DNA of 27,914 nucleotides from a virus. Its lineage: Duplodnaviria; Heunggongvirae; Uroviricota; Caudoviricetes. This document shows, in pieces, positions 1 through 27,618 of the stretch. Position numbers and translations under genes: made by a program. The notes beneath the pieces were generated by a model, which made no database searches, was not told the DNA's origin, and worked only from the letters and a program-made list of their open reading frames with translations. Every line of letters starts with the position of its first letter. The stretch's first letter is position 1. The stretch lies in IMG/VR virus record IMGVR_UViG_2913118216_000009; one strand, given 5' to 3'.

Positions 1-597
1 ATGAGTAACAACAAAAAGTCGCATTATGAGGATATGAAGAAGTTGTTGTGCGCGGACATACTGCACAGTAGTAAAAAATTCTCCTGGAGGAGAATCATAC
101 TACGTTGCTGGAGACAACCCGGACACAGATTCATGTGTTGGTGGAGGATAGCGAATTGCCTTTACTGTCAGGGAGGGAAATCAAGTATTAAGTGGGCACG
201 AAGAATCCACCGGAGACTTGTTTCAAAATACAATACTGATATTGGATTGGGGGCACAGATCGGGGAAAAATTCAAAATTTATCACTTCGTTGGAATAGTC
301 ATTTGTCCCCAGGCTGTGATTGGCAAAAATGTTCGTATCCGACAAAACACAACGATTGGATTAAAAACAGTTGAAGGAATCAAAGCCATCAGGATCGGAG
401 ACAATGTCGAGATTGGTGCAAATTCATGCATCATCGGTGATGATCTGACCATTGGTGATAACGTGACAATTGGTGCTATGTCATTCGTTAACCGAAACAT
501 TCCTGCTAATAGTGTCTTTATAACCCGCAGAGCCGCACAACTACTACCGCTTGATACGCACTCCACCTCTAACTATTCTGAACAACACAACAAGTGA
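1..597 (+). CDS. Hexapeptide-repeat (left-handed beta-helix) O-acetyltransferase, CysE/WbbJ-like; probable moron or flanking host gene
   Basis: 198-aa ORF starting at window position 1; repeated [LIV]-G-x-x-x-x hexapeptides (IGDNVEIGANSCIIGDDLTIGDNVTIGAMSFV) and an N-terminal region resembling serine acetyltransferases; markedly AT-rich codon usage compared with neighbouring phage genes; convergent with the tail operon. Confidence 0.7.
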   Translation: MSNNKKSHYEDMKKLLCADILHSSKKFSWRRIILRCWRQPGHRFMCWWRIANCLYCQGGKSSIKWARRIHRRLVSKYNTDIGLGAQIGEKFKIYHFVGIVICPQAVIGKNVRIRQNTTIGLKTVEGIKAIRIGDNVEIGANSCIIGDDLTIGDNVTIGAMSFVNRNIPANSVFITRRAAQLLPLDTHSTSNYSEQHNK

Positions 598-651: not shown

Positions 652-2355
652 TTAGGCAATAATCCCCTGATATTTTTCCCGGGTCTGCCCGGCTTTCGTC
701 CCTGTCTGGGTGAACGCGGCGGCATTGGTTGGCGTCCCAACGGAGGGGTGCGAATGGCTCGCGCATTGCTGCGCCAGCTCTTCCAGTAAATCAATGGTGT
801 CCAGCATCATGGTTAGGGCGTTGATACTCTCACTGCCAATATGGACAGTTGCCCCCATGACCTGCTGACCTCCAGCGGCCACTGATTTACGCAATGCGGC
901 AATCTTCTCTGTCAGGCTTTCGCCAACCTCCACGGCTACAGCACCACCCACTTTAGTAGACTGCCGTCCTGTTATGTCCGTTTCTTCGTTTCCTTCAATA
1001 CTGGACAACCTGTTACCTTTCACCGCCTGGCTATAATCACCGGTGCTGACCTGCTGGATGGCTCCAGCCAGCAATATGGCGGTTCCCAGTACCGTAGTTT
1101 TATCCGTAGCTTTCACCGTGGTTTCACGGCTTACCAGTTCGCGCTGTTCCGTATCGGCTTTTACGGTTCGCGCCATTGATGTTTCGCTGATGGTGTGATC
1201 GGTCTGCCTTACCCAGTCTCCAGCCTGAGTCACCCTCTGCGATACTTCTTCCCGCTGCTGCTGCAATTGCTCACCGGGTTTAACGTCCGGCAGGCTGGTA
1301 CCATCCGGCAGCGTCTGCCTGATAAAGGGTTTATCCGGTCTGCCTCCCGTGAATGCAACCTCAACCAGCGTCCCTTCTGGCGGAAACTGGAACATGCCTG
1401 AATCATTCCCGGCCATCGGTACCGGCAACGGCACCGCTGAATAAACAGGCGTCTGATTGTCCGGGTTTCCGTCTGCGTCAAGCAACTGCACGTCCACGGC
1501 ATAACGTGGCCGGAAAGGATCGGCAAAGTTACCGCTTTTTACCGGCTCTGAATACGCCACGACTCTGGCCATCTTTGGCAAATGAAGCCCGGATGCCAGT
1601 TCAGGGTAATGGCTTTCAATCTGCCTTTGTGCTGGTGTTTTCTGCAAAGGTTTACCCGTTACGCGGTTTCTCGGCATCCATGTGATCGCCATCGTGTCAT
1701 TCGTCAGATGAACCTTAGTCACGCGCTCACCGTTCATCTCCACCCCTGGCCGCATAGTCTGGATCACTGGTAATGTTACAGAGTTACCGCCAGCAGCCCC
1801 CTGGCTGAACTCTGATGGGATTTCTACGGGACGACCGGCAAACAATGACTTTTCTGCGCCACCGACGTAAAGCGAACCATCAGGAAACTGGTACCAGATG
1901 TAATCCTGGATACTGAACGCCCTTCCCAGATTGTTCAGCAACTGATAACCAGTACCGTTATGGGTAAAATGTGGGATAGGGGTATCGCTGTACTGTGCGT
2001 CAGGCACACTGACCGTGATCCCGCTGTGTTCTTCCAACCAGACCGCAATTTCACGCAAAGTCGGGTGTTGAAACGAACATGGCCACATCCTTTCAAACAC
2101 ACCTGCCAACTCACGAATGAACAGACGCTGAAAACCGTTTTCAGCAGGCTGCGATCGCTCCACGTACCCCGTAAACCAGCGCAAAAGCAGATCAGTATAC
2201 CCCACATCCAGCCGCACCAGTTTTCCGGTGTAATCTGTTGTTGTCTCTGCGGTGATGAAGCCCCGGCCGCAGCTGTTCAGCTCCAGTACCAGGCTGGCAT
2301 CCACCAGGTGAACTTCATCCGTTGAAAGGTATAGGCGTTTTACTGGTTTCATCAT
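652..2355 (-). CDS. Baseplate hub / central spike protein (gp27/gpD/VgrG-like N-terminal region with a long C-terminal extension)
   Basis: 567-aa ORF ending the tail operon; N-terminal segment (LLRWFTGYVERSQP...LFIRELAGVFERMW...TLREIAVWLEEHSGITV) resembles the pattern I recall for the gp27/GPD/VgrG hub fold; start overlaps the stop of the upstream gene. Confidence 0.45.
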   Translation of the reverse strand: MMKPVKRLYLSTDEVHLVDASLVLELNSCGRGFITAETTTDYTGKLVRLDVGYTDLLLRWFTGYVERSQPAENGFQRLFIRELAGVFERMWPCSFQHPTLREIAVWLEEHSGITVSVPDAQYSDTPIPHFTHNGTGYQLLNNLGRAFSIQDYIWYQFPDGSLYVGGAEKSLFAGRPVEIPSEFSQGAAGGNSVTLPVIQTMRPGVEMNGERVTKVHLTNDTMAITWMPRNRVTGKPLQKTPAQRQIESHYPELASGLHLPKMARVVAYSEPVKSGNFADPFRPRYAVDVQLLDADGNPDNQTPVYSAVPLPVPMAGNDSGMFQFPPEGTLVEVAFTGGRPDKPFIRQTLPDGTSLPDVKPGEQLQQQREEVSQRVTQAGDWVRQTDHTISETSMARTVKADTEQRELVSRETTVKATDKTTVLGTAILLAGAIQQVSTGDYSQAVKGNRLSSIEGNEETDITGRQSTKVGGAVAVEVGESLTEKIAALRKSVAAGGQQVMGATVHIGSESINALTMMLDTIDLLEELAQQCASHSHPSVGTPTNAAAFTQTGTKAGQTREKYQGIIA

Positions 2356-2900
2356 TAACCCAAAGCATCATTGACGGGCTTCAGTACCTTGCGTTCAAAC
2401 CACGTCAGTTTTTCTTCATCTTCTCCGGCAGACTGGCCACCGGACTGTCCCGCACTAACGGCAGTCTGTTTTTTTGCGGTCGTCTTACCTGTTGCCCTGG
2501 CCTCTTGCTTTTCCTGCACGCTGATATGTTCCGCCAGTGTGAATGTCACCAGCCAGGACATTTTCCCATCTTGCTGGGGGGCATCCACCGTTCCGCTGAA
2601 CGTTGCTTCACGAAAATTAACAGCACGGGCAACTTCATGCACCACGCGGTATTTCTGGCGATTACCACTGGCATCGGTAGTACTGGCCAGCTCAAAAATA
2701 CGCTTTAGTATTCCAGGCTGTTTAAAAGGTATTTCACCGCTGATCCGCAGTTCCTTTCCCTTTGCTCCCTGCTCTGATTTTGTTGTGGCGCTGGTCTGGC
2801 CGGACTGATCTTTATCCTGAAATTGCTGTGAAACAGTCACCCGCATGTTTTTCAGCTGGATGGCCTCGCCATTAAGCGCCAGTGTCGGGATCGAAGTCAT
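2355..2900 (-). CDS. Phage tail-associated protein, function unknown
   Basis: 181-aa ORF translationally coupled between the 253-aa ORF and the hub gene; typical GC content; no recognisable motif. Confidence 0.35.
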   Translation of the reverse strand: MTSIPTLALNGEAIQLKNMRVTVSQQFQDKDQSGQTSATTKSEQGAKGKELRISGEIPFKQPGILKRIFELASTTDASGNRQKYRVVHEVARAVNFREATFSGTVDAPQQDGKMSWLVTFTLAEHISVQEKQEARATGKTTAKKQTAVSAGQSGGQSAGEDEEKLTWFERKVLKPVNDALG

Positions 2901-3633
2901 GAATCATTCCCTTTATTCCATCAAGATTATCACCAACCAGCATCATGGCAGCGGTGTAAACGGCAGGCTGCTGCGGAATGTCCTTCATCAGTTCCAGTAA
3001 CGTGGTGCCGGTGTCTCCGCTGGCAGTAAAAACCCACGCTCTGGCACTTTTTCCCTGTAAATCATTCAGGCCGCTGGCCACATCACTGATAAGCTGGTCA
3101 CGCAACTGCGTGAACTCGCCCAGCTGTTTTTTCAGCCCTTCGATATCAAACCCGGCACCCGCCACCTTTTGTGCCTGACTGATTGCAGCAGCAGATAAAG
3201 CTGCCCTGCTGGTTGGTACAGACAGTGGAATGGACGCAGGTAACGCTGCGGCGGCTTTCGCCGGGATTTGCATCTTTTCAATAGCCAGCGCTGCGGCGGA
3301 TTGTGCCAGCCGTTTGACCTGCGTGAATGCCGGAGCGGGGAAAATCCCGACCAGGTTATTCAGGCTGGTCATAAAGTTTTCCTGCGTCTGTCCGGTGACC
3401 ATCATAATCACCACGTCCGCATTCCCCCCTGTTCCGGCCAGGCGTTCAGCAAGATAGCGAACAGCATTAACCGGGCTGAGATATGCCCCGTTCGCTGTCT
3501 GCTGTCCCAGCCCATAAATCCACGGATGCGCAGGGACGATCGAACAGTTCAGCGCAGCAACAGAATCTGTGAAGGCCAGACATGCTTCACGCCACATTTC
3601 CAGGCACCTCCGGCCACACAATTTCCGGAGCAT
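2872..3633 (-). CDS. Phage tail-associated protein, function unknown (likely start near 3597)
   Basis: 253-aa ORF immediately downstream of the tail fiber assembly gene, overlapping it by a few codons; Ala-rich central region; no recognisable catalytic motif. Confidence 0.35.
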   Translation of the reverse strand: MLRKLCGRRCLEMWREACLAFTDSVAALNCSIVPAHPWIYGLGQQTANGAYLSPVNAVRYLAERLAGTGGNADVVIMMVTGQTQENFMTSLNNLVGIFPAPAFTQVKRLAQSAAALAIEKMQIPAKAAAALPASIPLSVPTSRAALSAAAISQAQKVAGAGFDIEGLKKQLGEFTQLRDQLISDVASGLNDLQGKSARAWVFTASGDTGTTLLELMKDIPQQPAVYTAAMMLVGDNLDGIKGMIHDFDPDTGA

Positions 3634-4174
3634 CTTCCGGTTGAATACGGTTCAATAAAACCCGGAATTTTTTCCATGCAGTAAGTAGAAGTACTTCTTC
3701 TTCAGTCGCCATGTCTAAATCAACGGCATCCTGCAACGTGGCAATGGCGTCATTGGCCTGTTTAAGCAGGCTTTTCTTTTCGGCGTCTGCCTCGCTGACT
3801 AATGCAATTCGCATGGCCTCCGCATCATCCACCCACGCCTTACCATTCCATTTTTGCCAGGCATTAGCTGGTGCTAACGTGGTTGTCCTTTCCGGATAAG
3901 CGCCTGGCTCGGTGATCACCAGTTCATTACCGTTTTCTGTATCAAACACAACCTCACCACGGTGATCCTCACGGGAAATCCATCTTTGCTTCTCTGAATC
4001 AAAAATCGCCACAAACCCCGCTTTGATTGCCGGTGGCTTTATCGTGGTGCAGTTAGCTGGCAGTCCGGTATGCGCAGGAATAAAAGCATCACCCAAACCA
4101 ATAAATTCATTCGTGTCAGAGCGCAGGTTATAAACGGTAACTGTTTGATCCGTTTCACTCATTTTAAAAGTCAT
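3587..4174 (-). CDS. Tail fiber assembly chaperone (Tfa / P2 gpG-like)
   Basis: 195-aa ORF directly downstream of the tail fiber gene; size, position and C-terminal sequence (EEEVLLLTAWKKFRVLLNRI) are typical of the Tfa family. Confidence 0.7.
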   Translation of the reverse strand: MTFKMSETDQTVTVYNLRSDTNEFIGLGDAFIPAHTGLPANCTTIKPPAIKAGFVAIFDSEKQRWISREDHRGEVVFDTENGNELVITEPGAYPERTTTLAPANAWQKWNGKAWVDDAEAMRIALVSEADAEKKSLLKQANDAIATLQDAVDLDMATEEEVLLLTAWKKFRVLLNRIQPEDAPEIVWPEVPGNVA

Positions 4175-5748
4175 TATGCGAGTCTCACTATGTAGTTAAA
4201 TACGATGTTTTTAACGGTCGTTTCTTCATTGCCCGACGCGGCGACGGTAATGGTGTGACTATGTGCGCCTATTGCTACGGTATGAGAGTGAGCTCCAATT
4301 CCTACAGAATGGCTATGTGCGCCAATCCCTACAATATGAGCATGGTTGCCAGCCAAATCCGTATTACCTGTTGTTACGTTATCGCCGCCCTGACCTCTAT
4401 TGATATCTCCGTTTTGAGTGGCCTGCCCCTTAACATATGTATGAGTATGTGCACCAGTTGTATCGGTTGTTTTGGTTCCGTAATCAAATGTGCTCACAGC
4501 TCTAGTGCCGTAGTCAAAGGATGATGTTGACTTCGTCCCCAGATCGGTACTGAATGCACTAGCAGTGTGGGCATGGGATTTATTGCCATCATCTTCATAG
4601 GACAAAACTGCACGGCCATCAGGTTTTCCTTTGATCGTCTGGCGGCGCATATCAGGAAGAACACCCGATGGGTATACAATAGCCAGTCGCTGGTAAGCCA
4701 CTGGATCAAACACCTGCCCCTGCATGATTGCGTGACCCGCTGGTGGAATATCAGTCGGCCAAGGAAGTGGTACTCCAACCGGCACAACATCGCTAATGCT
4801 TAAGACCGCCAGCTCACCCAGCCCAAGATTTTTTCTGGCTTCCGCCTTGTCATTGATATCGGCAAGGTTTGCATCCTTACGCAAAAAATCGCTGCTGGCC
4901 TGTTGATCGCTCAGACTGCCTTTTGGCCTTAAATCCGTGATGTTGCCATCCACATCAATGCTGGCCACCGCAAATACAAAATGCTGAATACCGTTCTGAA
5001 CATAATCAGTCAGATTTTCTACAACCGTGACTTTACTCTGTACACTCCAGACACTGCTCAGAATCCCTGTCCAGCACACATCCAGCCAGACTTTTACCGA
5101 CATTGTCGTCACTGTAATATCCTGATTCGCATCCAGTGACACACGCAGTCCAGCCACATACCCTGTGCCTTTCGTGACATAAAACTGATTGCCGGTTTTG
5201 GCTACCAGATACCCGTTACCAAAAAACGCCGCCGCGCCATAAATATCTGTATTTTCCAGACGCTGGCGCTCATCAATTCCGGCCAAACGTGCAGTAAAAT
5301 CAATCTGCCAGGTTTCAGCGGGCGTATTAATCCCAGTTTCTGTTTGTGCACCGTTGTACTCCATCAGAAACGAGCGGGTCAGCACGTTCCCCTGTTGCCC
5401 TTCTTTTGTTTTCAGTTTCTGCTGTGCTGGTGCATGGACAATCATTGCCAGCGTACCGCTAGCCTTATTGAGCAGACCAATCCAGTTAAAACTGAAATCC
5501 CCCACATCTGCGCCCAGCACTACGGAATAGACCACCCTATTTTCATCCACCACACCGGTACGGGTAACAGCTTGCCGGTGAACAATCTGTGCTGTCGGGG
5601 GCAACCCTTCATTGCGATCAACAGGGATATCCGCGTTTAAATCCGGCACACTGGCAAAAACAAATTCGTCCAGTAGTACCGGTTCACCTGTTGCGCCCTG
5701 CTGTGCTTTCCAGTTTTCAAACGCCAGTGTGATGGCTGTCTGTGACAT
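4174..5748 (-). CDS. Tail fiber protein (receptor-binding; P2 gpH / Mu S-like N-terminal domain, repeat-rich C-terminal tip)
   Basis: 524-aa ORF; conserved-looking N-terminal fiber domain; C-terminal part has tandem peptide repeats (SxFDYGT x2 and GIGAHSH[ST]V x3-4, i.e. HxH motifs); followed by a Tfa chaperone. Confidence 0.8.
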
Positions 5749-5758
5749 AAAAATCTCC

Positions 5759-6352
5759 TTACAAACTCGCGCTGAATGTTGCGCTGCGGGCTTCCGTCCC
5801 TGCTAACGTCGCCGGGTAAACCACATATTCCCCATGATCCCACCCAGCCCGGATTACCAGGTTTTCAGACGTGATCACCTCAAACTGATAACGGCGGCAT
5901 GTTCGCCCGTACTGGCGGATTATCTGGATCAGCAGCTGCGTGTTGTCTGCAATTTGGCTGTCTGTAACCCGAACCAGAATCACATCCCAGTCGATATTCG
6001 GTTGCCGTTCTAACAGTTCCACATAACCGATGCCCAACCGGTCAAAGATATTGATAAACCCCTGTACTGAACCAGCATCCCGCGCATTCACGAAGGCAAA
6101 AGCCACGCGTTTGCGAAACAGGCTCAACGGTTCACCATCAAAGCGGGTAATATCCCGGTCATAAGCCAGCAGGTTCAGTAATGCCGGTGTACACGTCAGC
6201 GGATCAAACTGATTTATTGGCCAGGTAACCCAGTTGTAAACCTCAGCCCAAAAACGCTGCGCCGTTTTCAGCAATTTCCCCGGTTCGCCTTTATTCATCC
6301 AGGAAGGCAAGACCATCCCGGCCAGCTTTTCCATAAACTCATTCATTATCAA
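5759..6352 (-). CDS. Baseplate wedge / tail protein I-like
   Basis: 197-aa ORF between the baseplate J-like gene and the tail fiber gene, the canonical position of P2 gpI / Mu gp48. Confidence 0.5.
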
Positions 6353-7577
6353 TATTCACCGTCAGTGATTTCAGACGCGGCACGTCCAGTTCACTGGTAA
6401 TGTCTCCGAGCGAAAATGTCAGTGATTCCGTCTGTGCAAAGGTTTTATGAATTTCCCGCCCCAGTTGTGAAAATGAAAACCGTGAATATGGCCACGTCTT
6501 TCTGACGTCAAAATCAGCATTTTCACGAAAAGCGCAGCGGATAATGTTTTCAACGCCATCCTTCAGGCTTTTTCTTTCCTCATCGCTGAAATTATTCAGA
6601 TTCTCGACATAAACCGTAACGGCCAGATCGTGAAACGTTTCCGGCATGGGATAACAATGCATATCATCACCATGCCCGTGATGCCCCTGGGTGTTGATAT
6701 AGTCATTCACTGCATCCAAGAACGGTGCCGATGTCACCCCACTATCCAGCAATAGAAATGCGTTTGCTGTTCCAGGTCCCCTCGGTGCTTCATGCTCAAA
6801 GAAAATCCTATCGATACTCAACCCAGCAACGCTGGCGATCATTGAGCGATAAACCGCATCAGTGTGGTAATTCCCCACCAGATTGAACTGATTGCGACAA
6901 CGCTCGCGCAGTTCATCATCGCTCTCCTCGTCAGCTCCCGGCACGGTCAGCCAGTTTTCCTCACTGGCCACATGGCTGATACCACTGACCGCCACCGGCA
7001 GAATGCGGTAGTATCCAGGCGCAAGGTTATATGCGCCCCCGGTACCAGTGGCTTGCACCGGCAGTAATGCGCTGGCTGCACTGGAAGCGATCACCACATC
7101 TTCAGTGGTAGCCAGCTCATAAACTCGCCCGTTAATGCGTTCTGTCTGGATAACCGTCCCAGCTCTGACCGTCACAACAGCCTTTGTGTCTTCTTTGAAG
7201 AACCGAATTACCCCCTGTGCAGCGCTCGCCGGTTTTGCCGTGACGTTCACAGCCCAGGCCAGCAGACGCAACATGCTCCCGCTGGCCGTGGCCACAAACA
7301 TATTGGCCAGCACGGTTAACACCAGAACATCTTTAAGCCACATCACCGGGGCGGTCACAATGGCGGTGATTAATCGCCAGAACGGTGACATTCGGGATGT
7401 ATTGGTGATAATTCCCTCATCTGCTGCAATCGCATTAAAGCGTTCCCGCACTTCGGCTTCCGTTACCGGCATACCGCTGTCTTTCACCACGTCTTCAAAA
7501 TCAACCTGCGGTTTTTCCGTCATAAATCCACCTGCGCAGAGATCCCGCCAAAATCGTATGTGCTCGCGGTTACCCAC
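6339..7577 (-). CDS. Baseplate J-like protein (gp6 family); probable true start near 7523
   Basis: 412-aa ORF; size and position match Baseplate_J proteins; an internal Met (MTEKPQVDF) would give an ATGA-type overlap with the stop of the upstream gene. Confidence 0.65.
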   Translation of the reverse strand: MGNREHIRFWRDLCAGGFMTEKPQVDFEDVVKDSGMPVTEAEVRERFNAIAADEGIITNTSRMSPFWRLITAIVTAPVMWLKDVLVLTVLANMFVATASGSMLRLLAWAVNVTAKPASAAQGVIRFFKEDTKAVVTVRAGTVIQTERINGRVYELATTEDVVIASSAASALLPVQATGTGGAYNLAPGYYRILPVAVSGISHVASEENWLTVPGADEESDDELRERCRNQFNLVGNYHTDAVYRSMIASVAGLSIDRIFFEHEAPRGPGTANAFLLLDSGVTSAPFLDAVNDYINTQGHHGHGDDMHCYPMPETFHDLAVTVYVENLNNFSDEERKSLKDGVENIIRCAFRENADFDVRKTWPYSRFSFSQLGREIHKTFAQTESLTFSLGDITSELDVPRLKSLTVNIDNE

Positions 7578-7867
7578 AACCGCTTCTGACTTTCTTCACT
7601 GATTTCCACCGAACCCGGCACAATACGTTCATCATCTTCAATCAGTAATTCCATGCGGGTAAAAATATCCGCTCTCATTGTCGGGCTACGTTCGGCTATT
7701 AATTCCGTAGCCAACCCACTTTCAATAATGGAATGAATAATGTCCTGTCCGATACTTTGTCGGTTATTACATAATTCAGGTTCATTACCGACATTCAGAA
7801 CAAAATCGCCGCCCTGAATCAGCAAATCAATATAAAGAACATTACTCATGCACCAAGCTCCTGCCAT
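7520..7867 (-). CDS. Small baseplate protein (gp25/GPW-like); probable true start near 7849
   Basis: About 110 aa, immediately after the tape measure gene with an ATGA start/stop overlap, and immediately before the J-like gene. Confidence 0.45.
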   Translation of the reverse strand: MAGAWCMSNVLYIDLLIQGGDFVLNVGNEPELCNNRQSIGQDIIHSIIESGLATELIAERSPTMRADIFTRMELLIEDDERIVPGSVEISEESQKRLWVTASTYDFGGISAQVDL

Positions 7868-9813
7868 TCCATAAGCTGGAGTGGAGAAAATGCTTCTTTG
7901 GTATGGAAATGCACTTCGCCAATTTTCCGGCTGTTATCGATTACGGATGTTGTGTTTCTGCTGATTGTTTTACTGATACCACCATTATCCACACCTTTTA
8001 AATCGCCCCCCGTAGACAGCGTATTACCAGTTAATGGCTGTAAGGTTTCACTGGCCAGAGAAATATCCACGCCGGGAATTTCATTCAGTTTCTGAACAAT
8101 CCAGTTCCACGACTTAAGAAATCCCTCTTTGATTGAGTTCCAGACAATATCAAACAGCGACATAATACCGGTGGCCATTCCCTTTAATGCCTCAGATGGT
8201 GAAAATCCTGTCAGCATAGAAATAAAACTGCTCCATCCATCACTGACATATTGCCAGGCTAAAACAAAGATCCCCGCTAGCCATTTCACTACGGCAGCAC
8301 ATGCCTGGAAGGCTTCGGTATTCATCACCGATGCTTTTATCGTGTTCCAGTGCTTAACCAGCAGATAACAACCAGCAACAAGCAGCGCAATGGCACCAAT
8401 CACAAGCAGGATTGGCCAGCTCATCAAATTGATACCAATTCCGGTCATCATTGCGGCCATGCGTACCGCCAGTAACGCGCCGCGTAAAAACTTCAGCGTG
8501 GTATTCCAGGCGATTACCGCCATTTGCGCCAGCCAGACAGTGGCCGTGTAGATTTTCGTAATCGCCGTTAGCGCCACCCAGATCCCGCGCAATCCCATCA
8601 TGATGAATCTGGATACCCCCATCACGATATTGACCACCGCACCCACGGCGGCAAAGCTCAGGAGTGCCATCGACGCATAACCAATCACACGGGCAATGTT
8701 AGGAAATAGCTGCATCCAGCGGGCAAAGGTCTGCCCCATATCAGCCAGGCGATTCAGAACCGGATACAGCACAGGGATCAGCGTCAGCCCGATCACGGTC
8801 TGAATGGCTTTCAGGATTTGCACAAAGCGATCCCACGGCTTAACCATTTTTTGTGCCATTTCCTGGGTACGCTTCAGACCGTCCGCACCGCCCAGTTCGG
8901 TGATGTTCCGCTGAAGTAACGCGACATTGCCGTAAAGCTGTTTAACCACTGCCGAACTGTCACCAAAGGCTGCATCCAGTTCCGCCTGGGCTTTCAGGTT
9001 CCCTTCAAGGCTTTTGCCATATTTGCCCTGCAACTTGATCAGCATTTCAGGCATGGACAGCATTTTGCCGGTGGAGTCAGTAAAGGACAGCCCCAGCTTT
9101 TTAGCGCCATCAATCGCACCGGTCATAAACCCTTCATAGGCGCTGCTGGCTTCCGTTCCCAGTGTCCGCTGAAGTTGCCCCAGCACGGCCAGTTGTTCAT
9201 CCAGCCCTACGCCGTAGTTAGTCCCGACACCGCGCGCGCCTTCCATCAAATCCTTGATAGTGGCCATTTCTGTGCCAAAGGTTTTGCGCATATAAACCAT
9301 CTTGCCTGCCAGTTGCTCGGCAAATTCAACCTTGCCCAGTCTGGTGGCATCGGCGGAAAAGTTACCGAACATCTGCCCCATAAATTCCGCCGTGTCCGCC
9401 GCTGTGGACTTGAGCGCAAAAGCCAGGGTATTGGCGACTTTCGTCACCTTCGGCAGTTCATTACCCGTCAGTCCGGCAATGGAAGTGTTAATATTTTCCG
9501 TGGATTTAACAAACTCCACCGCACTGGCACCATAGGTTGTACTAAAGCGCAGGGCATCACGCTGAACTGTCTTAAGTGCTGAATCATCAATACCTTTTGC
9601 GGCGGCATTATTCAGCGCGTCATACATTTCAATTGCCGGTGATAAAGCACTTTTGATCTCCATCCCGATACCTGCCAGCGCCAGAACGCCACCACCGATC
9701 TGCATAAAGGCTGCTTTTGATTTTTCCGCAAAGCTGGTGACGTTACCCTGCACCTGTTTTAACGGGCGGGATAATTTATCAATCAGGCTTAATGTAAAAT
9801 CTAATTGTTTCAT
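7846..9813 (-). CDS. Tail tape measure protein
   Basis: 655-aa ORF; Ala/Gly-rich with coiled-coil-like N-terminal half and several long hydrophobic segments in the C-terminal half; directly downstream of the chaperone gene. Confidence 0.75.
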   Translation of the reverse strand: MKQLDFTLSLIDKLSRPLKQVQGNVTSFAEKSKAAFMQIGGGVLALAGIGMEIKSALSPAIEMYDALNNAAAKGIDDSALKTVQRDALRFSTTYGASAVEFVKSTENINTSIAGLTGNELPKVTKVANTLAFALKSTAADTAEFMGQMFGNFSADATRLGKVEFAEQLAGKMVYMRKTFGTEMATIKDLMEGARGVGTNYGVGLDEQLAVLGQLQRTLGTEASSAYEGFMTGAIDGAKKLGLSFTDSTGKMLSMPEMLIKLQGKYGKSLEGNLKAQAELDAAFGDSSAVVKQLYGNVALLQRNITELGGADGLKRTQEMAQKMVKPWDRFVQILKAIQTVIGLTLIPVLYPVLNRLADMGQTFARWMQLFPNIARVIGYASMALLSFAAVGAVVNIVMGVSRFIMMGLRGIWVALTAITKIYTATVWLAQMAVIAWNTTLKFLRGALLAVRMAAMMTGIGINLMSWPILLVIGAIALLVAGCYLLVKHWNTIKASVMNTEAFQACAAVVKWLAGIFVLAWQYVSDGWSSFISMLTGFSPSEALKGMATGIMSLFDIVWNSIKEGFLKSWNWIVQKLNEIPGVDISLASETLQPLTGNTLSTGGDLKGVDNGGISKTISRNTTSVIDNSRKIGEVHFHTKEAFSPLQLMEWQELGA

Positions 9814-10261
9814 TCATTGCCTTTAAATGCTTTTGCCACACCATTGGCCACGGCTATTCCCGTATATTCCCAGTGACGATTGTCCAGCCAGATAGCGGCG
9901 GCGATATCATCAACGGAATCCTGACCATGTGGTAAATAATGACGGCGTAGAATTAAATATTGTTCGAGTCCATTTATTTCAATTTCATGGACTCGACTTG
10001 TCAGTTTTTTACTTCAATTTCCAGTTCAGGCGCATAAATATCATTTACTTTGCCAACCAGTTGAAGTGCAGCACCCGGACGTTTTAATACTTCACAAAGT
10101 GAGGCTTTACTTTCAATCGCAACAATTCGTGTCAGATAGTTATGCGCAGGAGCAACCTTATTGTCCATTGCCATTTCATTAATAAATTTATTGTAGGCAG
10201 TCTGGTTTGGTTCAAAAATAATTTCAACGCCACAAACACACAGTTTAATTTGTTCCATCAA
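9779..10261 (-). other. Predicted -1 frameshift fusion product of the tail assembly chaperone (gpE+E'-like)
   Basis: By my reading the -1 frame is open for about 77 codons from the slippery heptamer, ending about 35 nt inside the tape measure ORF; a 10-bp stem hairpin (TCGAGTCCAT...ATGGACTCGA) begins 7 nt after the heptamer. Confidence 0.45.
10001..10261 (-). CDS. Tail assembly chaperone (P2 gpE analogue), short form
   Basis: 86-aa ORF immediately upstream of the tape measure gene; ends ...GAA GTA AAA AAC TGA, placing an A_AAA_AAC slippery heptamer at the stop codon; TTG start in the track with an ATG as the second codon. Confidence 0.55.
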   Translation of the reverse strand: MMEQIKLCVCGVEIIFEPNQTAYNKFINEMAMDNKVAPAHNYLTRIVAIESKASLCEVLKRPGAALQLVGKVNDIYAPELEIEVKN

Positions 10262-10544
10262 TAACTCTCTCTCTTAAAATAATTTCACCCACTAACTGAT
10301 TATGACGAGCAGCACACTGACCATATAAATCAAGATAAATCGTCAGTAATTCCGCTGAGTCTTTTCCTGTCGCACCATTGAGGCGCGGCAACTGCGTGGC
10401 ACATTTAGTTTTCAGATTTTCCTGATAACGCACGTTCGGTACCGGCTGCGGCGCTGTTGTACATGCTGACAAACTCATCAGACAGGCAACGATTAGTAAA
10501 AACGGGCTTAAGTATTTCCGTGCGTATCTCTCGCGGTGCCACAT
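10245..10544 (-). CDS. Outer-membrane spanin lipoprotein (Rz1/LysC-like); probable true start near 10478
   Basis: Signal-peptide-like hydrophobic segment followed by a lipobox (LSAC) and a Pro-rich mature region; overlaps the 3' end of the i-spanin gene in another frame. Confidence 0.55.
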   Translation of the reverse strand: MWHRERYARKYLSPFLLIVACLMSLSACTTAPQPVPNVRYQENLKTKCATQLPRLNGATGKDSAELLTIYLDLYGQCAARHNQLVGEIILRERVIDGTN

Positions 10545-10743
10545 TTTTTAACGCCTCCAGTTTATCTTCCAGCGCTCTGGCCGAATCACTGGCAATACCC
10601 TGCATTGCTTTTCGCGATTCATTACCGGCCACCTGCGCCGCTGTATTGATTGCCAACTCTAAGCTATCACGCCGCCAGTCAGCGGTTAGCCAGCCCCAGA
10701 CAAACGCCAGCGCCACCACAACCAACCACTGCCCGCTGCTCAT
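10405..10743 (-). CDS. Inner-membrane spanin (Rz/LysB-like)
   Basis: 112-aa ORF with one N-terminal transmembrane segment (WLVVVALAFVWGWL) and a charged, coiled-coil-like periplasmic part; directly downstream of the endolysin gene; overlapped by the o-spanin gene. Confidence 0.55.
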   Translation of the reverse strand: MSSGQWLVVVALAFVWGWLTADWRRDSLELAINTAAQVAGNESRKAMQGIASDSARALEDKLEALKNVAPREIRTEILKPVFTNRCLSDEFVSMYNSAAAGTERALSGKSEN

Positions 10744-11201
10744 CAGCGCACCCCGTTATGTTCCAGGCTGAAATGATTGCCATCCGGCCTGGATTTGAAG
10801 CGCCCGCCCCAGACTCCACCTAGAGATTCCCAGAACTCCCCCAGCGGCAGATAATCTTCTGTGCGAGTTTTGTACTGATCATTCACGAACAAATTAAAAT
10901 CTACAGCCAACCGCTGGGTGTGCAGACTGTTAGAAGTACCACTGCCTTTCTTCTCATTCAGCGCAGCCTGTTCTGGTGTACGGTAAGCCTCACCAAATGT
11001 CAGTCGGTAGCCATGTTCTTCTGCCCAGTGGATCAGACTGGCCACCATGACTGTGAATAATTGCTGTTTTTCACTCAGGGTCATTTGTCTTGCTCCCGTT
11101 CTGCTTTCCCGCTGCACGTCTGCGCAGCCACACTTCCACCGCCTGATAACCGGCAATCCCCAGCGCCGCCCCCAGCCCCTGAATGGCCAGCGGGCTGGCA
11201 T
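10743..11201 (-). CDS. Endolysin, peptidase M15 family (L-alanyl-D-glutamate peptidase-like); probable true start near 11084
   Basis: Contains HWAEEHGY...LHTQRLAVDFNLF...DGNHFSLEH, matching the zinc-binding H..D..H arrangement of M15/VanY-type peptidases; sits between holin and spanins. Confidence 0.7.
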   Translation of the reverse strand: MPARWPFRGWGRRWGLPVIRRWKCGCADVQRESRTGARQMTLSEKQQLFTVMVASLIHWAEEHGYRLTFGEAYRTPEQAALNEKKGSGTSNSLHTQRLAVDFNLFVNDQYKTRTEDYLPLGEFWESLGGVWGGRFKSRPDGNHFSLEHNGVR

Positions 11202-11373
11202 CCGGGATCTGAATCAGCACCGCCCCGGCCACTACTGAAACCAGACTGCCCAGGATCACGCGACCAGCAAACAGGCGCGGCGTGATGGGGTCATTACTGG
11301 TCAGCACATTGCCGATGGCAATCAATGCGCCAATGATCAGCAGTGAATAAAGGCTCTTTTCATGCTCCTGCAT
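11071..11373 (-). CDS. Holin (three predicted transmembrane segments)
   Basis: 100-aa ORF with three hydrophobic stretches and a basic C-terminal tail (RRRAAGKQNGSK); immediately upstream of the endolysin gene. Confidence 0.55.
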   Translation of the reverse strand: MQEHEKSLYSLLIIGALIAIGNVLTSNDPITPRLFAGRVILGSLVSVVAGAVLIQIPDASPLAIQGLGAALGIAGYQAVEVWLRRRAAGKQNGSKTNDPE

Positions 11374-25411: not shown

Positions 25412-25990
25412 GTGAAGCTACAAATTGAATTTTCTCATGGCGGATCAGAAGTCTTGGACAGAGTCATCCAGGCGTATGGTTTCAACACAAAATTAGCCCT
25501 GGCCGAACATCTTGATATAGCAAGTAGCAGCCTGGCTAATCGCTACAAGAGGGATTTTTTTCCAGCAGATATCGTTGTTAGATGCATGGCTGAAACGGGA
25601 GCAACTCTGGAATGGCTTGCGACTGGGCAAGGAAGAAAGTTTAACGATGACGAATTAGACATCATGAAACTGCCGCGTAAGAAGATTGTGGACGGAAAAC
25701 TCTATGATTCCGGTTTGCTAATGCTCGATAAGGTTACTTTTTTACCTGGTAAGCCTTTACCACAGAATCCAATCTGTGTGATTGACAACGCAATGCAGTA
25801 CATTGTTGATCAACACTTTCCCGAAGTTTACGACGATGATTGGTTAGTTGAAATTGAAGGAAAAACAAGTGTGAGAACCCTTACGCGCATCCCCGTAGGC
25901 AAAGTTCGAGTGAGTGGCGTTGGGATGGCATTTGATTGCGCTATCGAAGATATAAAAATTTTAGGTCGTATTATCTTAACTATAAAATAA
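25412..25990 (+). CDS. Immunity repressor, phage 186 CI type
   Basis: 192-aa ORF (GTG start with AAGGAAAAA Shine-Dalgarno), same length as 186 CI as I recall it; transcribed towards the integrase gene and divergent from the Apl/CII operon; no LexA/S24-type cleavage motif seen. Confidence 0.6.
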   Translation: MKLQIEFSHGGSEVLDRVIQAYGFNTKLALAEHLDIASSSLANRYKRDFFPADIVVRCMAETGATLEWLATGQGRKFNDDELDIMKLPRKKIVDGKLYDSGLLMLDKVTFLPGKPLPQNPICVIDNAMQYIVDQHFPEVYDDDWLVEIEGKTSVRTLTRIPVGKVRVSGVGMAFDCAIEDIKILGRIILTIK

Positions 25991-26004
25991 TAAGGAAAAT
26001 TATA

Positions 26005-26574
26005 ATGATAGATTACAAGACTGCATCTAAAGACCAATTAAAAGTAGAAATGAAACGATTGTCTGCCGCTGTTTCAGATACGCCATTTGGTACAAAAAAA
26101 GAATTTTTTCATCTTCCCGAAGTTTTAAACACCGGCGAGGAACCGCTTGGCATAGTAAGCGGTATGATGGATGGCAACACCTGGTTAATAACTTTAACTA
26201 ACCAACGCGTTATCTTCCTCGATAAAGGGATGATATTTGGTGTTAAGCAGGTCGATATTAGCCTTCGTAACATTGTAAGCGTTGGCGGAAAGACTGGACT
26301 GATATTTGGTGAGATAATGATTTCAACAAGCGGACAGAATTACACCATAAAAAACGTTATAAAATCCTCCGTAATTCCTTTTACCAACCTTGTTAATGAG
26401 ACAAGGAATAGTCTGGACAAGCCACAAGTTATCACCGCTCCTACAAGCTCCAACGAAAAATCTTCATTTGATGATGTCATGGATAAAATTGAACGTTTGG
26501 CTGAAATGAAAGCAGAAGGCATTCTTACTGAAGAAGAATTTCAGCAGCAAAAACAACGCATTTTAAACAGCTAA
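26005..26574 (+). CDS. PH-domain plus SHOCT-domain protein (moron between repressor and integrase)
   Basis: ATG at about 26005 with AAGGAAAA Shine-Dalgarno; central region resembles bacterial PH (YdbS/YokE-like) domains; C-terminus IERLAEMKAEGILTEEEFQQQKQRIL matches the SHOCT motif; strongly AT-rich. Confidence 0.6.
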   Translation: MIDYKTASKDQLKVEMKRLSAAVSDTPFGTKKEFFHLPEVLNTGEEPLGIVSGMMDGNTWLITLTNQRVIFLDKGMIFGVKQVDISLRNIVSVGGKTGLIFGEIMISTSGQNYTIKNVIKSSVIPFTNLVNETRNSLDKPQVITAPTSSNEKSSFDDVMDKIERLAEMKAEGILTEEEFQQQKQRILNS

Positions 26575-26577
26575 GCT

Positions 26578-27618
26578 ATGTCTGTAAGAAAATTAACAAA
26601 TGGCCAGTGGATTGCCGATTTCTACACGGTGGATCGAAGCAATGGTAAAGCCGGTAAGCGTATTCGTAAAAAATTCGCTACAAAAGGCGAAGCCCTGGCC
26701 TACGAGAACTATACGCTTCAGCAAGTGGAGAACTCCCCCTGGCTTGGCGAGGGTAAAGACCTCCGTACTCTAAGCGACCTAATCAACATGTGGTACGAAC
26801 GCCACGGCGTAGCTTTGCGCAACGGTCAAAAGCGTAAAGACGCAATGACATGGGCGGCGGAGTGTATGGGATTCCCGCTGGCCACAGAGTTTAATGCTCA
26901 ACTGTTTACAGCATACCGCGCAAAAAGGCTTGATGGGCATTATGCCCGCACTAACAGAGTATCCAAGGTTTCCCCGAAAACAATGAACCTTGAACATGCT
27001 TACTTTCTGGCTATGTTCAATGAGCTTAAACGGATTGGAGAATGGTCAGCCCCTAACCCACTGGAAAACGTCAGACAGTATCGCACTGATGAAACCGAAA
27101 TGGCTTTCCTCACTGCTGAAGAAATTGATCGGCTTTTGCTGGAATGCAAACGCAGTAAAGTAAGTTACTTAGAGTTAGTAGTAAAAATTTGCCTGGCGAC
27201 CGGCGCAAGGTGGAATGAAGCGGCGACACTCAAAAGCTCCCAGATTGCTGGCGGAAAAGTCACCTTCATAAAAACAAAAGGGAAAAGGAACCGTACCATT
27301 CCCTTAGATGATGAACTTCTGGCTGAAATTTCGGAAACAAAAGGCGCTCTGTTTCCGAAGCCCTGCTATAACGCTTTTCGTTCCGCCCTGGAACGTGCAG
27401 GTATTGAATTGCCTTCTGGTCAGCTAACCCACGTATTACGCCATACATTTGCCAGCCACTTTATGATGAATGGCGGGAACATTCTGGTTCTGCAAAAAAT
27501 TCTCGGCCACGCTGACATCACTATGACAATGCGTTATGCCCATTTCGCCCCAAGCCACCTTGAAGATGCTATGCGACTTAACCCCTTAAAATGTCGCAAA
27601 AATGTCGCTGCAGCTTAG
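26578..27618 (+). CDS. int: Tyrosine integrase (P2/186 family site-specific recombinase)
   Basis: 346-aa ORF; C-terminal catalytic region HVLRHTFASHFMMNGGNILVLQKILGHADITMTMRYAHF with the conserved R...H-x-x-R...Y arrangement; located at the prophage end. Confidence 0.9.
   Translation: MSVRKLTNGQWIADFYTVDRSNGKAGKRIRKKFATKGEALAYENYTLQQVENSPWLGEGKDLRTLSDLINMWYERHGVALRNGQKRKDAMTWAAECMGFPLATEFNAQLFTAYRAKRLDGHYARTNRVSKVSPKTMNLEHAYFLAMFNELKRIGEWSAPNPLENVRQYRTDETEMAFLTAEEIDRLLLECKRSKVSYLELVVKICLATGARWNEAATLKSSQIAGGKVTFIKTKGKRNRTIPLDDELLAEISETKGALFPKPCYNAFRSALERAGIELPSGQLTHVLRHTFASHFMMNGGNILVLQKILGHADITMTMRYAHFAPSHLEDAMRLNPLKCRKNVAAA

Follow-up and report, generated by a model that had tools for sequence, protein, structure and literature searches.

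The systems closest to the locus described here are the P2-like phages of the HP1 subgroup (Peduoviridae), whose order of tail genes was already recorded with the deposition of the HP1 genome. No baseplate from this subgroup has been solved, and the fusion of gpD and gpV in HP1 was already stated in a supplement in 2023 (PMC10612066). In P2 itself, the U and D genes end the tail gene set. P2 shares a functional set with the proteins described below: a tube-fold initiator that has a C-terminal helix, a putative hub module, and a spike with a probable OB domain and an apex of HxH type. P2 also has a LysM "glue" protein, gpX. In type VI secretion system (T6SS) VgrG and in T4 gp27-gp5, hub, OB domain and beta-helix are combined in one trimeric unit, as is proposed below for the 567-aa protein.

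The whole stretch of DNA analysed here (the window; 27,914 nucleotides, Caudoviricetes) is a Peduoviridae prophage of the ESSI-2/HP1 type within the HP1 subgroup of P2-like phages. Its nearest phage is Escherichia phage ESSI2_ev015 (genus Quadragintavirus), with approximately 93% nucleotide identity to the window. Membership in the subgroup is shown by head and replication genes of the P2 type, which the genome also carries: Pfam matches were found to the P2-type families Phage_GPL, P2_Phage_GpR, Phage_GPA and Ogr_Delta, and the HP1 Orf24 tube and DUF2586 sheath were also matched. The tail genes considered here are listed below; the six from the tape measure to Tfa were assigned by Pfam and the ESSI2_ev015 annotation.

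7846-9813, minus strand: tape measure
7520-7867, minus strand: DUF2590, W-like sheath initiator
6339-7577, minus strand: J
5759-6352, minus strand: I
4174-5748, minus strand: tail fibre
3587-4174, minus strand: Tfa
3587-9813, minus strand: upstream context, tape measure through Tfa, same gene block
2872-3597, minus strand: orf33-like gene, 241 aa, corrected start (first called as 253 aa, 2872-3633)
2355-2900, minus strand: orf34-like gene, 181 aa, baseplate protein of tail-tube fold
652-2355, minus strand: orf35-like gene, 567 aa (566 aa if the second ATG, at 2352, is the start), predicted fused hub module and central spike

The earlier note had read this arrangement, with the W-like, J and I genes directly after the tape measure and three ORFs after the fibre and Tfa genes, as an unusual tail architecture. 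The arrangement itself was confirmed. The same order in characterised phages, which the earlier note had named, alongside confident structural matches of the two smaller proteins, as pointing to merely a known lineage, is what the comparison with relatives returned: it occurs in HP1 (orf27-35), K139, phiO18P, phi3, YenM_324 and SI7, with HP1 orf31-35 and K139 orf35-39 matching it exactly, and 73 out of 78 IMG/VR loci carry the orf33/34/35-like triad contiguously and in this order. Compared with Haemophilus phage HP1, the order is identical from the tape measure to the last gene, and all three ORFs are homologous to orf33, orf34 and orf35, respectively (24%–46% identity). The same homologous trio is present in HP2, Vibrio K139 (orf37-39), Aeromonas phiO18P (gp44-46), Cronobacter ESSI-2 and ESSI2_ev015 (gp03-gp01), with 95%–97% identity in the last. 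We found no substantive difference from HP1-type relatives, among which mosaicism affects the fibre C-terminus and Tfa. The layout is ordinary for the lineage because the tail gene set of HP1-type P2-like phages usually ends with these three genes; it is canonical for the HP1 subgroup, not novel. Relative to P2, the W-J-I-H-G block and the orf33-like gene are placed between the T equivalent and the U and D equivalents, which end the set in both, and D and V form one chain.

The three genes are the last of the minus-strand tail-gene block, and a search directly downstream of the 567-aa gene turned up no convincing intrinsic terminator. They are coupled: TAATG at 2355 joins the 181-aa and 567-aa genes, the ORF first called as 253 aa overlaps the 181-aa gene by 29 nt (2872-2900), and Tfa overlaps the orf33-like gene by 11 nt. 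Their GC (0.51–0.54) is typical of the window. The three ORFs were as previously described, except for the length of one. The true start of the "253-aa" ORF is almost certainly 3597, because the ATG there has GGAGG 9 nt upstream, the resulting 241 aa is the length of almost all homologues among the matches listed, and 241 aa is also the annotated length of ESSI2_ev015 gp03.

One reading of the 241-aa and 181-aa ORFs is that they are accessory cargo (morons), not virion parts, since they sit downstream of Tfa, where P2 carries Z/fun after G. The names given to orf34 homologues in several phage records ("adenine glycosylase" or "DNA-binding protein") fit this reading, as does the failure to detect the homologue of the 181-aa protein in ACA1 virions (PMC10612066). 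However, both ORFs lie on the tail-gene strand with overlapping stop and start codons and typical GC, they are conserved with unchanged order across at least eight genera as well as in the IMG/VR loci above, and their identity tracks that of the baseplate genes. A tube fold is present in the 181-aa protein, the proteins detected in ACA1 virions include the orf33 homologue, and these proteins had no PADLOC or enzyme-family matches. With conservation this strict and PADLOC silent, we rejected a cargo or defence role, which we regard as highly improbable. The parallel with Z/fun drawn in the earlier note holds for position and goes no further; its preference for structural roles agrees with two ORFs that are conserved, coupled and co-varying with baseplate genes, one of them with a tube fold.

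The 181-aa protein is a baseplate protein of the tube initiator (gpU, "ripcord") class. It matches PF25759 (2.3e-53) and has a tail-tube (Hcp-like) fold; a disordered linker follows, and then a helix, conserved, at the C-terminus. We note that K139 orf38, as annotated, lacks this helix. Sequence comparisons reach little further: hmmscan gave no match to Phage_P2_GpU (PF06995), single-sequence and profile searches of the family against the PDB gave chance matches only, and the HHpred link of the ACA1 homologue to gpU was described as "uncertain" (PMC10612066). Identity to the tube initiators or "ripcords" of solved baseplates (Pa193 gp38, Pam3 gp17, pyocin R2 PA0626, Bas63 gp018, XM1 gp11 and Mu gp43) is only 6%–13%. 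In contrast to these solved proteins, the 181-aa protein has no LysM domain, and it extends at the C-terminus through a disordered linker and one helix instead of a long ripcord.

The 567-aa protein matches phrog_2258 ("baseplate protein", 1.6e-273) along with phrog_4011, the latter only over residues 243–565, and aligns with HP1 orf35 (41% identity), K139 orf39 and phiO18P gp46. Judged by its sequence, it is a hub-spike fusion, as the earlier note had proposed, with the following parts.

1621-2355, minus strand: N-module, residues ~1–245, putative gp44/gpD-like hub ("spike-mounting") domain (hhalign)
1288-1593, minus strand: probable OB-fold region of gp5/gpV/VgrG type, residues ~255–356 (PF04717, VgrG alignments)
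832-1116, minus strand: triple-stranded beta-helix of T4 gp5 C-terminal type, residues 414–508 (phmmer against the PDB)
748-756, minus strand: HxH motif (H534-S-H536) near the C-terminus, candidate metal-binding spike apex

Evidence for the spike part comes from several sources. Phage_base_V (PF04717) scored 22.8 bits at residues 309–345, just under its 23.8 cut-off; it matched four out of six family members at the same site and also the phi3 spike. VgrG chains align to the same region (6sjl to residues 293–355, 4mtk to residues 311–463). The trimeric beta-helix of gp5, gpV and VgrG spikes is present: phmmer found the gp5 beta-helix fragments 4jiw, 4jiv and 1k28 (E 3e-7 to 5e-7), and Gp5_C and Gp5_trimer_C gave weak matches. 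The VgrG OB region and the T4 gp5 beta-helix match the protein directly, if weakly, while NCBIfam VgrG models scored far under their cut-offs. H534 and H536 are unchanged in an alignment across seven phage genera, the Pfam Apex model (GpV apex motif) matches the aligned site in K139 orf39 (E 0.006), and the corresponding P2 gpV sequence is HTHKH. An H-T-H motif was noted in the Smhb1 homologue (PMC8537503). The HxH apex of spikes in the gp5/gpV class binds iron, and the tip here would probably bind a metal ion. Consistent with a fused spike, and with the earlier remark that no separate spike gene could be recognised, a Pfam scan of the late genes of the window found neither a gpV-type spike encoded on its own nor a gpX/LysM gene.

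The hub identity of the N-module has moderate support from a profile-profile match. Against a 12-sequence Mu gp44/P2 gpD alignment, hhalign gave a probability of 67%–79% (P 1.6e-5 to 5.3e-5, ~150 columns), compared with P 0.2–0.3 for reversed controls. The pairing joins residues 7–171 to gp44 residues 7–181, so that only about the first 170 residues are covered. This profile was the only one among the hub comparisons to give a match; a P2 gpD homologue search returned only copies 98%–100% identical, unusable for a profile, and a deep N-module profile found nothing significant against single gpD or gp44 sequences. More broadly, hhalign of small family profiles against single P2 sequences (gpU, gpD, gpV and gpX) detected no similarity; these comparisons included the 181-aa family with gpU and the 567-aa family with gpD. 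The hub and spike halves are separate genes in many relatives, and a stand-alone N-module protein of 225–245 aa is present in most 50%-identity clusters and also in phi3.

The N-module could instead be an extension unrelated to hubs, making the 567-aa protein a long gpV/gp5-like spike, with the hub formed elsewhere, such as by the 241-aa protein or the 181-aa ring alone. The partial reach into gp44 and the null comparison with single gpD would fit this, as would the lack of a Phage_GPD match at threshold in Pfam. The ~245 residues that precede the OB domain are also ~130 fewer than in gpD/gp44 (379–387 aa), so that the N-module does not amount to a full multi-domain hub with two tube-like barrels per chain (~380 aa). 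Yet the profile match is far from its reversed controls, relatives show weak STN and Gp44-like_2nd matches (one also matches Phage_GPD, E 0.17), and independent HHpred analysis assigned the homologous ACA1 gp48 to gpD (PMC10612066). The 241-aa family has no similarity to hubs. A spike with no hub module is therefore unlikely in our assessment, and we retain the hub-spike fusion.

The 241-aa protein is probably a conserved, baseplate-associated virion component, judging from sequence comparisons and its homologue. It matches phrog_1677 (1.7e-75) and has no match in Pfam or NCBIfam; it aligns with HP1 orf33, K139 orf37 and phiO18P gp44, and tblastn with it recovered HP2 orf33 (E 1e-10). Its AF2 model has a low confidence score (pLDDT 58) and, at that confidence, gave no meaningful fold match in the PDB or BFVD and none among many solved myophage baseplate proteins. 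Single-sequence and profile searches of the family against the PDB gave chance matches only, and we saw no LysM fold. In ACA1 virions, the orf33 homologue was detected at an abundance similar to gpW, gpJ and gpV, on the evidence of two spectra in a distant relative (PMC10612066).

Since the 241-aa gene directly follows and overlaps Tfa, its product could be part of the fibre system, acting either as another fibre chaperone or as an adaptor between fibre and baseplate, outside the hub and wedge core. It also diverges faster than its neighbours (median identity across loci 74%, versus 83% and 78%), which fits this reading. However, its identity tracks that of J, I and the 181-aa protein (rho 0.93–0.94) and is uncoupled from Tfa swaps (rho 0.35), with many loci having unrelated Tfa and 241-aa proteins that are 81%–86% identical, which we interpret as a recombination boundary between the two genes. 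Virion detection of the homologue speaks against a pure chaperone, and there is no similarity to the Caudo_TAP family. Membership in the fibre system thus seems rather unlikely, if a little less so than a hubless spike, and we favour a place in the baseplate.

Taken together, the region very probably encodes the inner baseplate core of this HP1-subgroup P2-like (Peduoviridae) prophage. Three copies of the 567-aa protein would form the central hub and membrane-piercing spike in one chain, running from the gp44/gpD-like mounting module through the OB domain and gp5-like beta-helix to the tip, where HxH would probably hold a metal ion. Six copies of the 181-aa protein would form a ring atop the hub and start tube polymerisation around the tape measure; its flexible linker and C-terminal helix probably reach the J/I wedges, in the manner of the C-terminal helix of P2 gpU. 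The 241-aa protein, probably present at low copy, most likely ties hub and initiator to the wedges, a role suggested by its position, its conservation and the absence of gpX, which does this job in P2. Compared with P2, the window has this protein, which has no P2 counterpart, in place of gpX/LysM; its hub module is ~130 aa shorter, and its spike carries a gp5-like beta-helix. Compared with VgrG and gp27-gp5, the protein has a much shorter hub part and lacks a lysozyme domain, and its tip motif lies within the chain, not in a separate PAAR/gp5.4 cap.

As the window is one more prophage of a known type, the value of these results for discovery is small, and their practical value lies in annotation. 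Tube initiator is the name that the 181-aa family should carry. The 567-aa family can be annotated as a hub-spike fusion; many relatives encode its two halves as separate genes, and annotation of the one for the N-module is sometimes missing (phi3, C5a). This leaves the orf33 family as the sole conserved HP1-type tail protein without a structural or functional assignment. Tentatively, and leaning also on the absence of a Pfam family for orf33, we raise the possibility that this family is a baseplate component of new fold that replaces the LysM glue protein throughout the HP1 subgroup; in combination with the shortened hub module, the family may build a junction between hub and wedge that differs from those in all solved contractile tails.

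Tail genes run without a break along part of the minus strand of the window:

7846-9813, minus strand: tape measure
7520-7867, minus strand: DUF2590 protein
6339-7577, minus strand: Baseplate_J
5759-6352, minus strand: Tail_P2_I
4174-5748, minus strand: tail fibre
3587-4174, minus strand: Caudo_TAP fibre chaperone (Tfa)
2872-3633, minus strand: first ORF under study, orf33-like (241-aa protein with the start at 3597)
2355-2900, minus strand: second ORF, orf34-like (181-aa protein)
652-2355, minus strand: third ORF, orf35-like (567-aa protein)

The last three ORFs, named after genes of Haemophilus phage HP1, are tightly coupled. Tfa and the first ORF overlap by 11 nt, the first and second ORFs by 29 nt, and the second and third meet at TAATG; their GC content (0.51-0.54) is the same as that of the remaining late region. 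The earlier note located all three correctly except for the start of the first. This start is most probably the ATG at 3597, not 3633, since GGAGG lies 9 nt 5' of it, homologues are 241 aa in almost all matches listed from a collection of 5.8 billion proteins, and the gene is also annotated as 241 aa in the closest phage, ESSI2_ev015.

The tail order of the window is standard for the HP1 subgroup, since characterised phages and most related loci agree on it. All six annotated genomes checked have the order tape measure, DUF2590, J, I, fibre, Tfa, orf33-like, orf34-like, orf35-like: HP1 (orf27 to orf35), K139 (orf31 to orf39), phiO18P (gp38 to gp46), YenM_324 (gp27 to gp35), SI7 (gp16 to gp24), and Pseudomonas phage phi3. 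At least 515 IMG/VR loci code for a relative of the 567-aa protein; among the best 80, 78 had sufficient upstream DNA, and 73 of these contained the three genes contiguously. The other five (loci L022, L043, L045, L050, and L059) keep the hub-spike gene with orf33/orf34 truncated or missing upstream, and probably reflect prophage decay, prophage rearrangement, or breaks in the assembly. By tblastn, homologues of the 181-aa protein occur in 73 phage records, spanning Vibrio, Haemophilus, Pasteurella, Aeromonas, Pseudomonas, Pseudoalteromonas, Yersinia, and Salmonella phages, among others, and those of the 241-aa protein in 21, including HP2 orf33. The first 8 kb of the window are 90-93% identical in DNA to Escherichia phages ESSI2_ev015, ev040, ev129, and ev239 (Peduoviridae, genus Quadragintavirus), with Cronobacter phage ESSI-2 more distant, and the annotated tail order of ESSI2_ev015 is identical. 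Compared with P2, the HP1 subgroup has the W-J-I-H-G block, then orf33, between the T and U/D equivalents. The earlier note had called this architecture unusual but took the same gene order in characterised phages as grounds to drop that view, and such phages exist. What it saw is real, yet it is the normal tail layout of a lineage already known.

The 181-aa protein matched Pfam PF25759, "Bacteriophage HP1 ORF34 baseplate complex protein" (E 2.3e-53). An AlphaFold2 model based on 102 homologues is confident for the core (residues 7-125, pLDDT about 90) and shows a disordered loop (26-48), a disordered linker (136-160), and a C-terminal helix (167-180). Its comparison table lists Pa193 gp38 "ripcord-1" (10.3), Milano gp25 centerpiece (9.5), Pam3 tube initiator gp17 (9.0), pyocin R2 ripcord PA0626 (9.0), Bas63 tube initiator (8.7), XM1 gp11 (8.2), Mu gp43 (7.8), and T4 gp54 (6.3). 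In P2, the tube initiator is gpU, with six copies atop the gpD trimer and a C-terminal helix touching the J/I triplex, and PA0626 is taken as its pyocin counterpart (cryo-EM preprint 10.64898/2026.09.14.750843). In the 181-aa family, the C-terminal helix, FERKVLKPVNDALG, is likewise shared across Escherichia, Aeromonas, and Pseudomonas, and by analogy it may have the same role. We note that several phage records (NC_070917, NC_048066, NC_047775, NC_030940, OR762784, and MT662115) label homologues "adenine glycosylase", "nucleoid DNA-binding protein", or "DNA-binding protein". No result in this analysis supports these labels, which look like annotation errors because the family has a tube-initiator fold.

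The 567-aa protein appears to combine a spike with a hub module. Its C-terminal half is a spike: residues 414-508 matched T4 gp5 beta-helix structures (E 3e-7), VgrG chains align at the OB region, and the PF04717 OB-domain model scored 22.8 bits at residues 309-345, just below its 23.8 cut-off, and recognised that position also in the phi3 spike and four of six family members. Across seven genera, H534 and H536 do not vary, and they coincide with the site of the Pfam GpV "Apex" motif in K139 orf39 (E 0.006). The apex of P2 gpV reads HTHKH, and the H-T-H motif of the homologous Smhb1 "tail spike" is on record (PMC8537503). No gpV-like spike or gpX/LysM gene was found among the other late genes of the window, in line with the earlier note, which recognised no separate spike gene.

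The N-terminal 245 residues form a separable module. PHROG 4011 spans only residues 243-565, and an exhaustive phmmer search with residues 1-250 against 1.84 billion cluster representatives returned 256 relatives, most of them stand-alone proteins (225-245 aa) and a smaller number fused (520-610 aa). In phi3, the module is encoded apart from the spike gene by its own 232-aa ORF (37% identical). The phi3 record (NC_030940) omits this gene and the orf33-like gene (8087-9001 and 9537-10235 for the orf33-like gene and the hub module, respectively); in phage C5a, the gpD homologue is likewise missing from the annotation (PMC10612066). Using hhalign against a 12-sequence alignment of Mu gp44, P2 gpD, and relatives, a profile of 87 stand-alone modules matched over 152 columns (probability 67%, P 5.3e-5; residues 7-171 to gp44 7-181), and six fused proteins also matched (79%, P 1.6e-5), compared with P 0.2-0.3 for reversed-sequence controls. 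Weak STN (9 of 87), Gp44-like_2nd, and Phage_GPD matches among the relatives point the same way. These matches support a hub identity, short of full family membership because P2 gpD and Mu gp44 are longer by about 130 residues and the module matches only the first half of the hub. The same hub-spike fusion was read independently by HHpred (PMC10612066, supplement). The earlier note had guessed well, both in proposing a fusion and in taking the two small ORFs as structural, not accessory; both points were already published for HP1-type phages. The PDB and literature searched yielded no HP1-subgroup baseplate structure.

About 190 nt separate the Phage_TAC_10 tail assembly chaperone (10001-10261, minus strand) from the tape measure that follows it; P2-like phages produce an E+E' frameshift product at this site. 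As in HP1, the lysis cassette (10245-11373, minus strand) separates the tube gene from the tail chaperone:

11071-11373, minus strand: holin
within 10743-11201, minus strand: Peptidase_M15 endolysin, in place of the gpK type of P2
10405-10743, minus strand: possible spanin, no Pfam match, named only from the syntenic ESSI2_ev015 annotation
10245-10544, minus strand: LysC-like ORF

A hexapeptide-repeat acetyltransferase ORF (1-597, plus strand; Pfam Hexapep 1.8e-12) converges on the tail operon end in a lower-GC stretch. This prophage-end gene probably serves lysogenic conversion (a moron); ESSI2_ev015 has a "serine acetyltransferase" annotated past its integrase. Where GC content is lowest in the window (about 0.40), the CI-type repressor (25412-25990) and the integrase (26578-27618) flank an ORF of 212 aa (25936-26574, plus strand) that carries bacterial PH (bPH_3) and SHOCT domains. 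This ORF had no PADLOC match and may be an accessory or exclusion gene; ESSI2_ev015 has no annotated gene separating repressor from integrase.

Sequence searches with the 241-aa protein gave no match in Pfam, NCBIfam, or the PDB. The protein falls in PHROG 1677, listed as of unknown function, and aligns with HP1 orf33, K139 orf37, phiO18P gp44, and the unannotated phi3 ORF. When 57 IMG/VR relatives were compared with the window, the identity of this protein followed the identities of J, I, and the 181-aa protein (Spearman 0.93-0.94) and did not track that of Tfa (0.35). Many loci have an unrelated Tfa beside an orf33-like gene still 81-86% identical. The exchangeable fibre cassette therefore has its recombination boundary upstream of this gene, which is part of the conserved core block. 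Since the HP1-type gene set is without the LysM glue protein that P2 requires, we consider a hub-to-wedge linker the most likely role, at roughly even odds, with a fibre-related role as the main alternative. In ACA1 virions, mass spectrometry recovered the orf33 homologue with 2 spectra (0.09 spectra per kDa), in the range of gpW (0.08), gpJ (0.05), and gpV (0.06) (PMC10612066). The orf33 family is a conserved virion protein.
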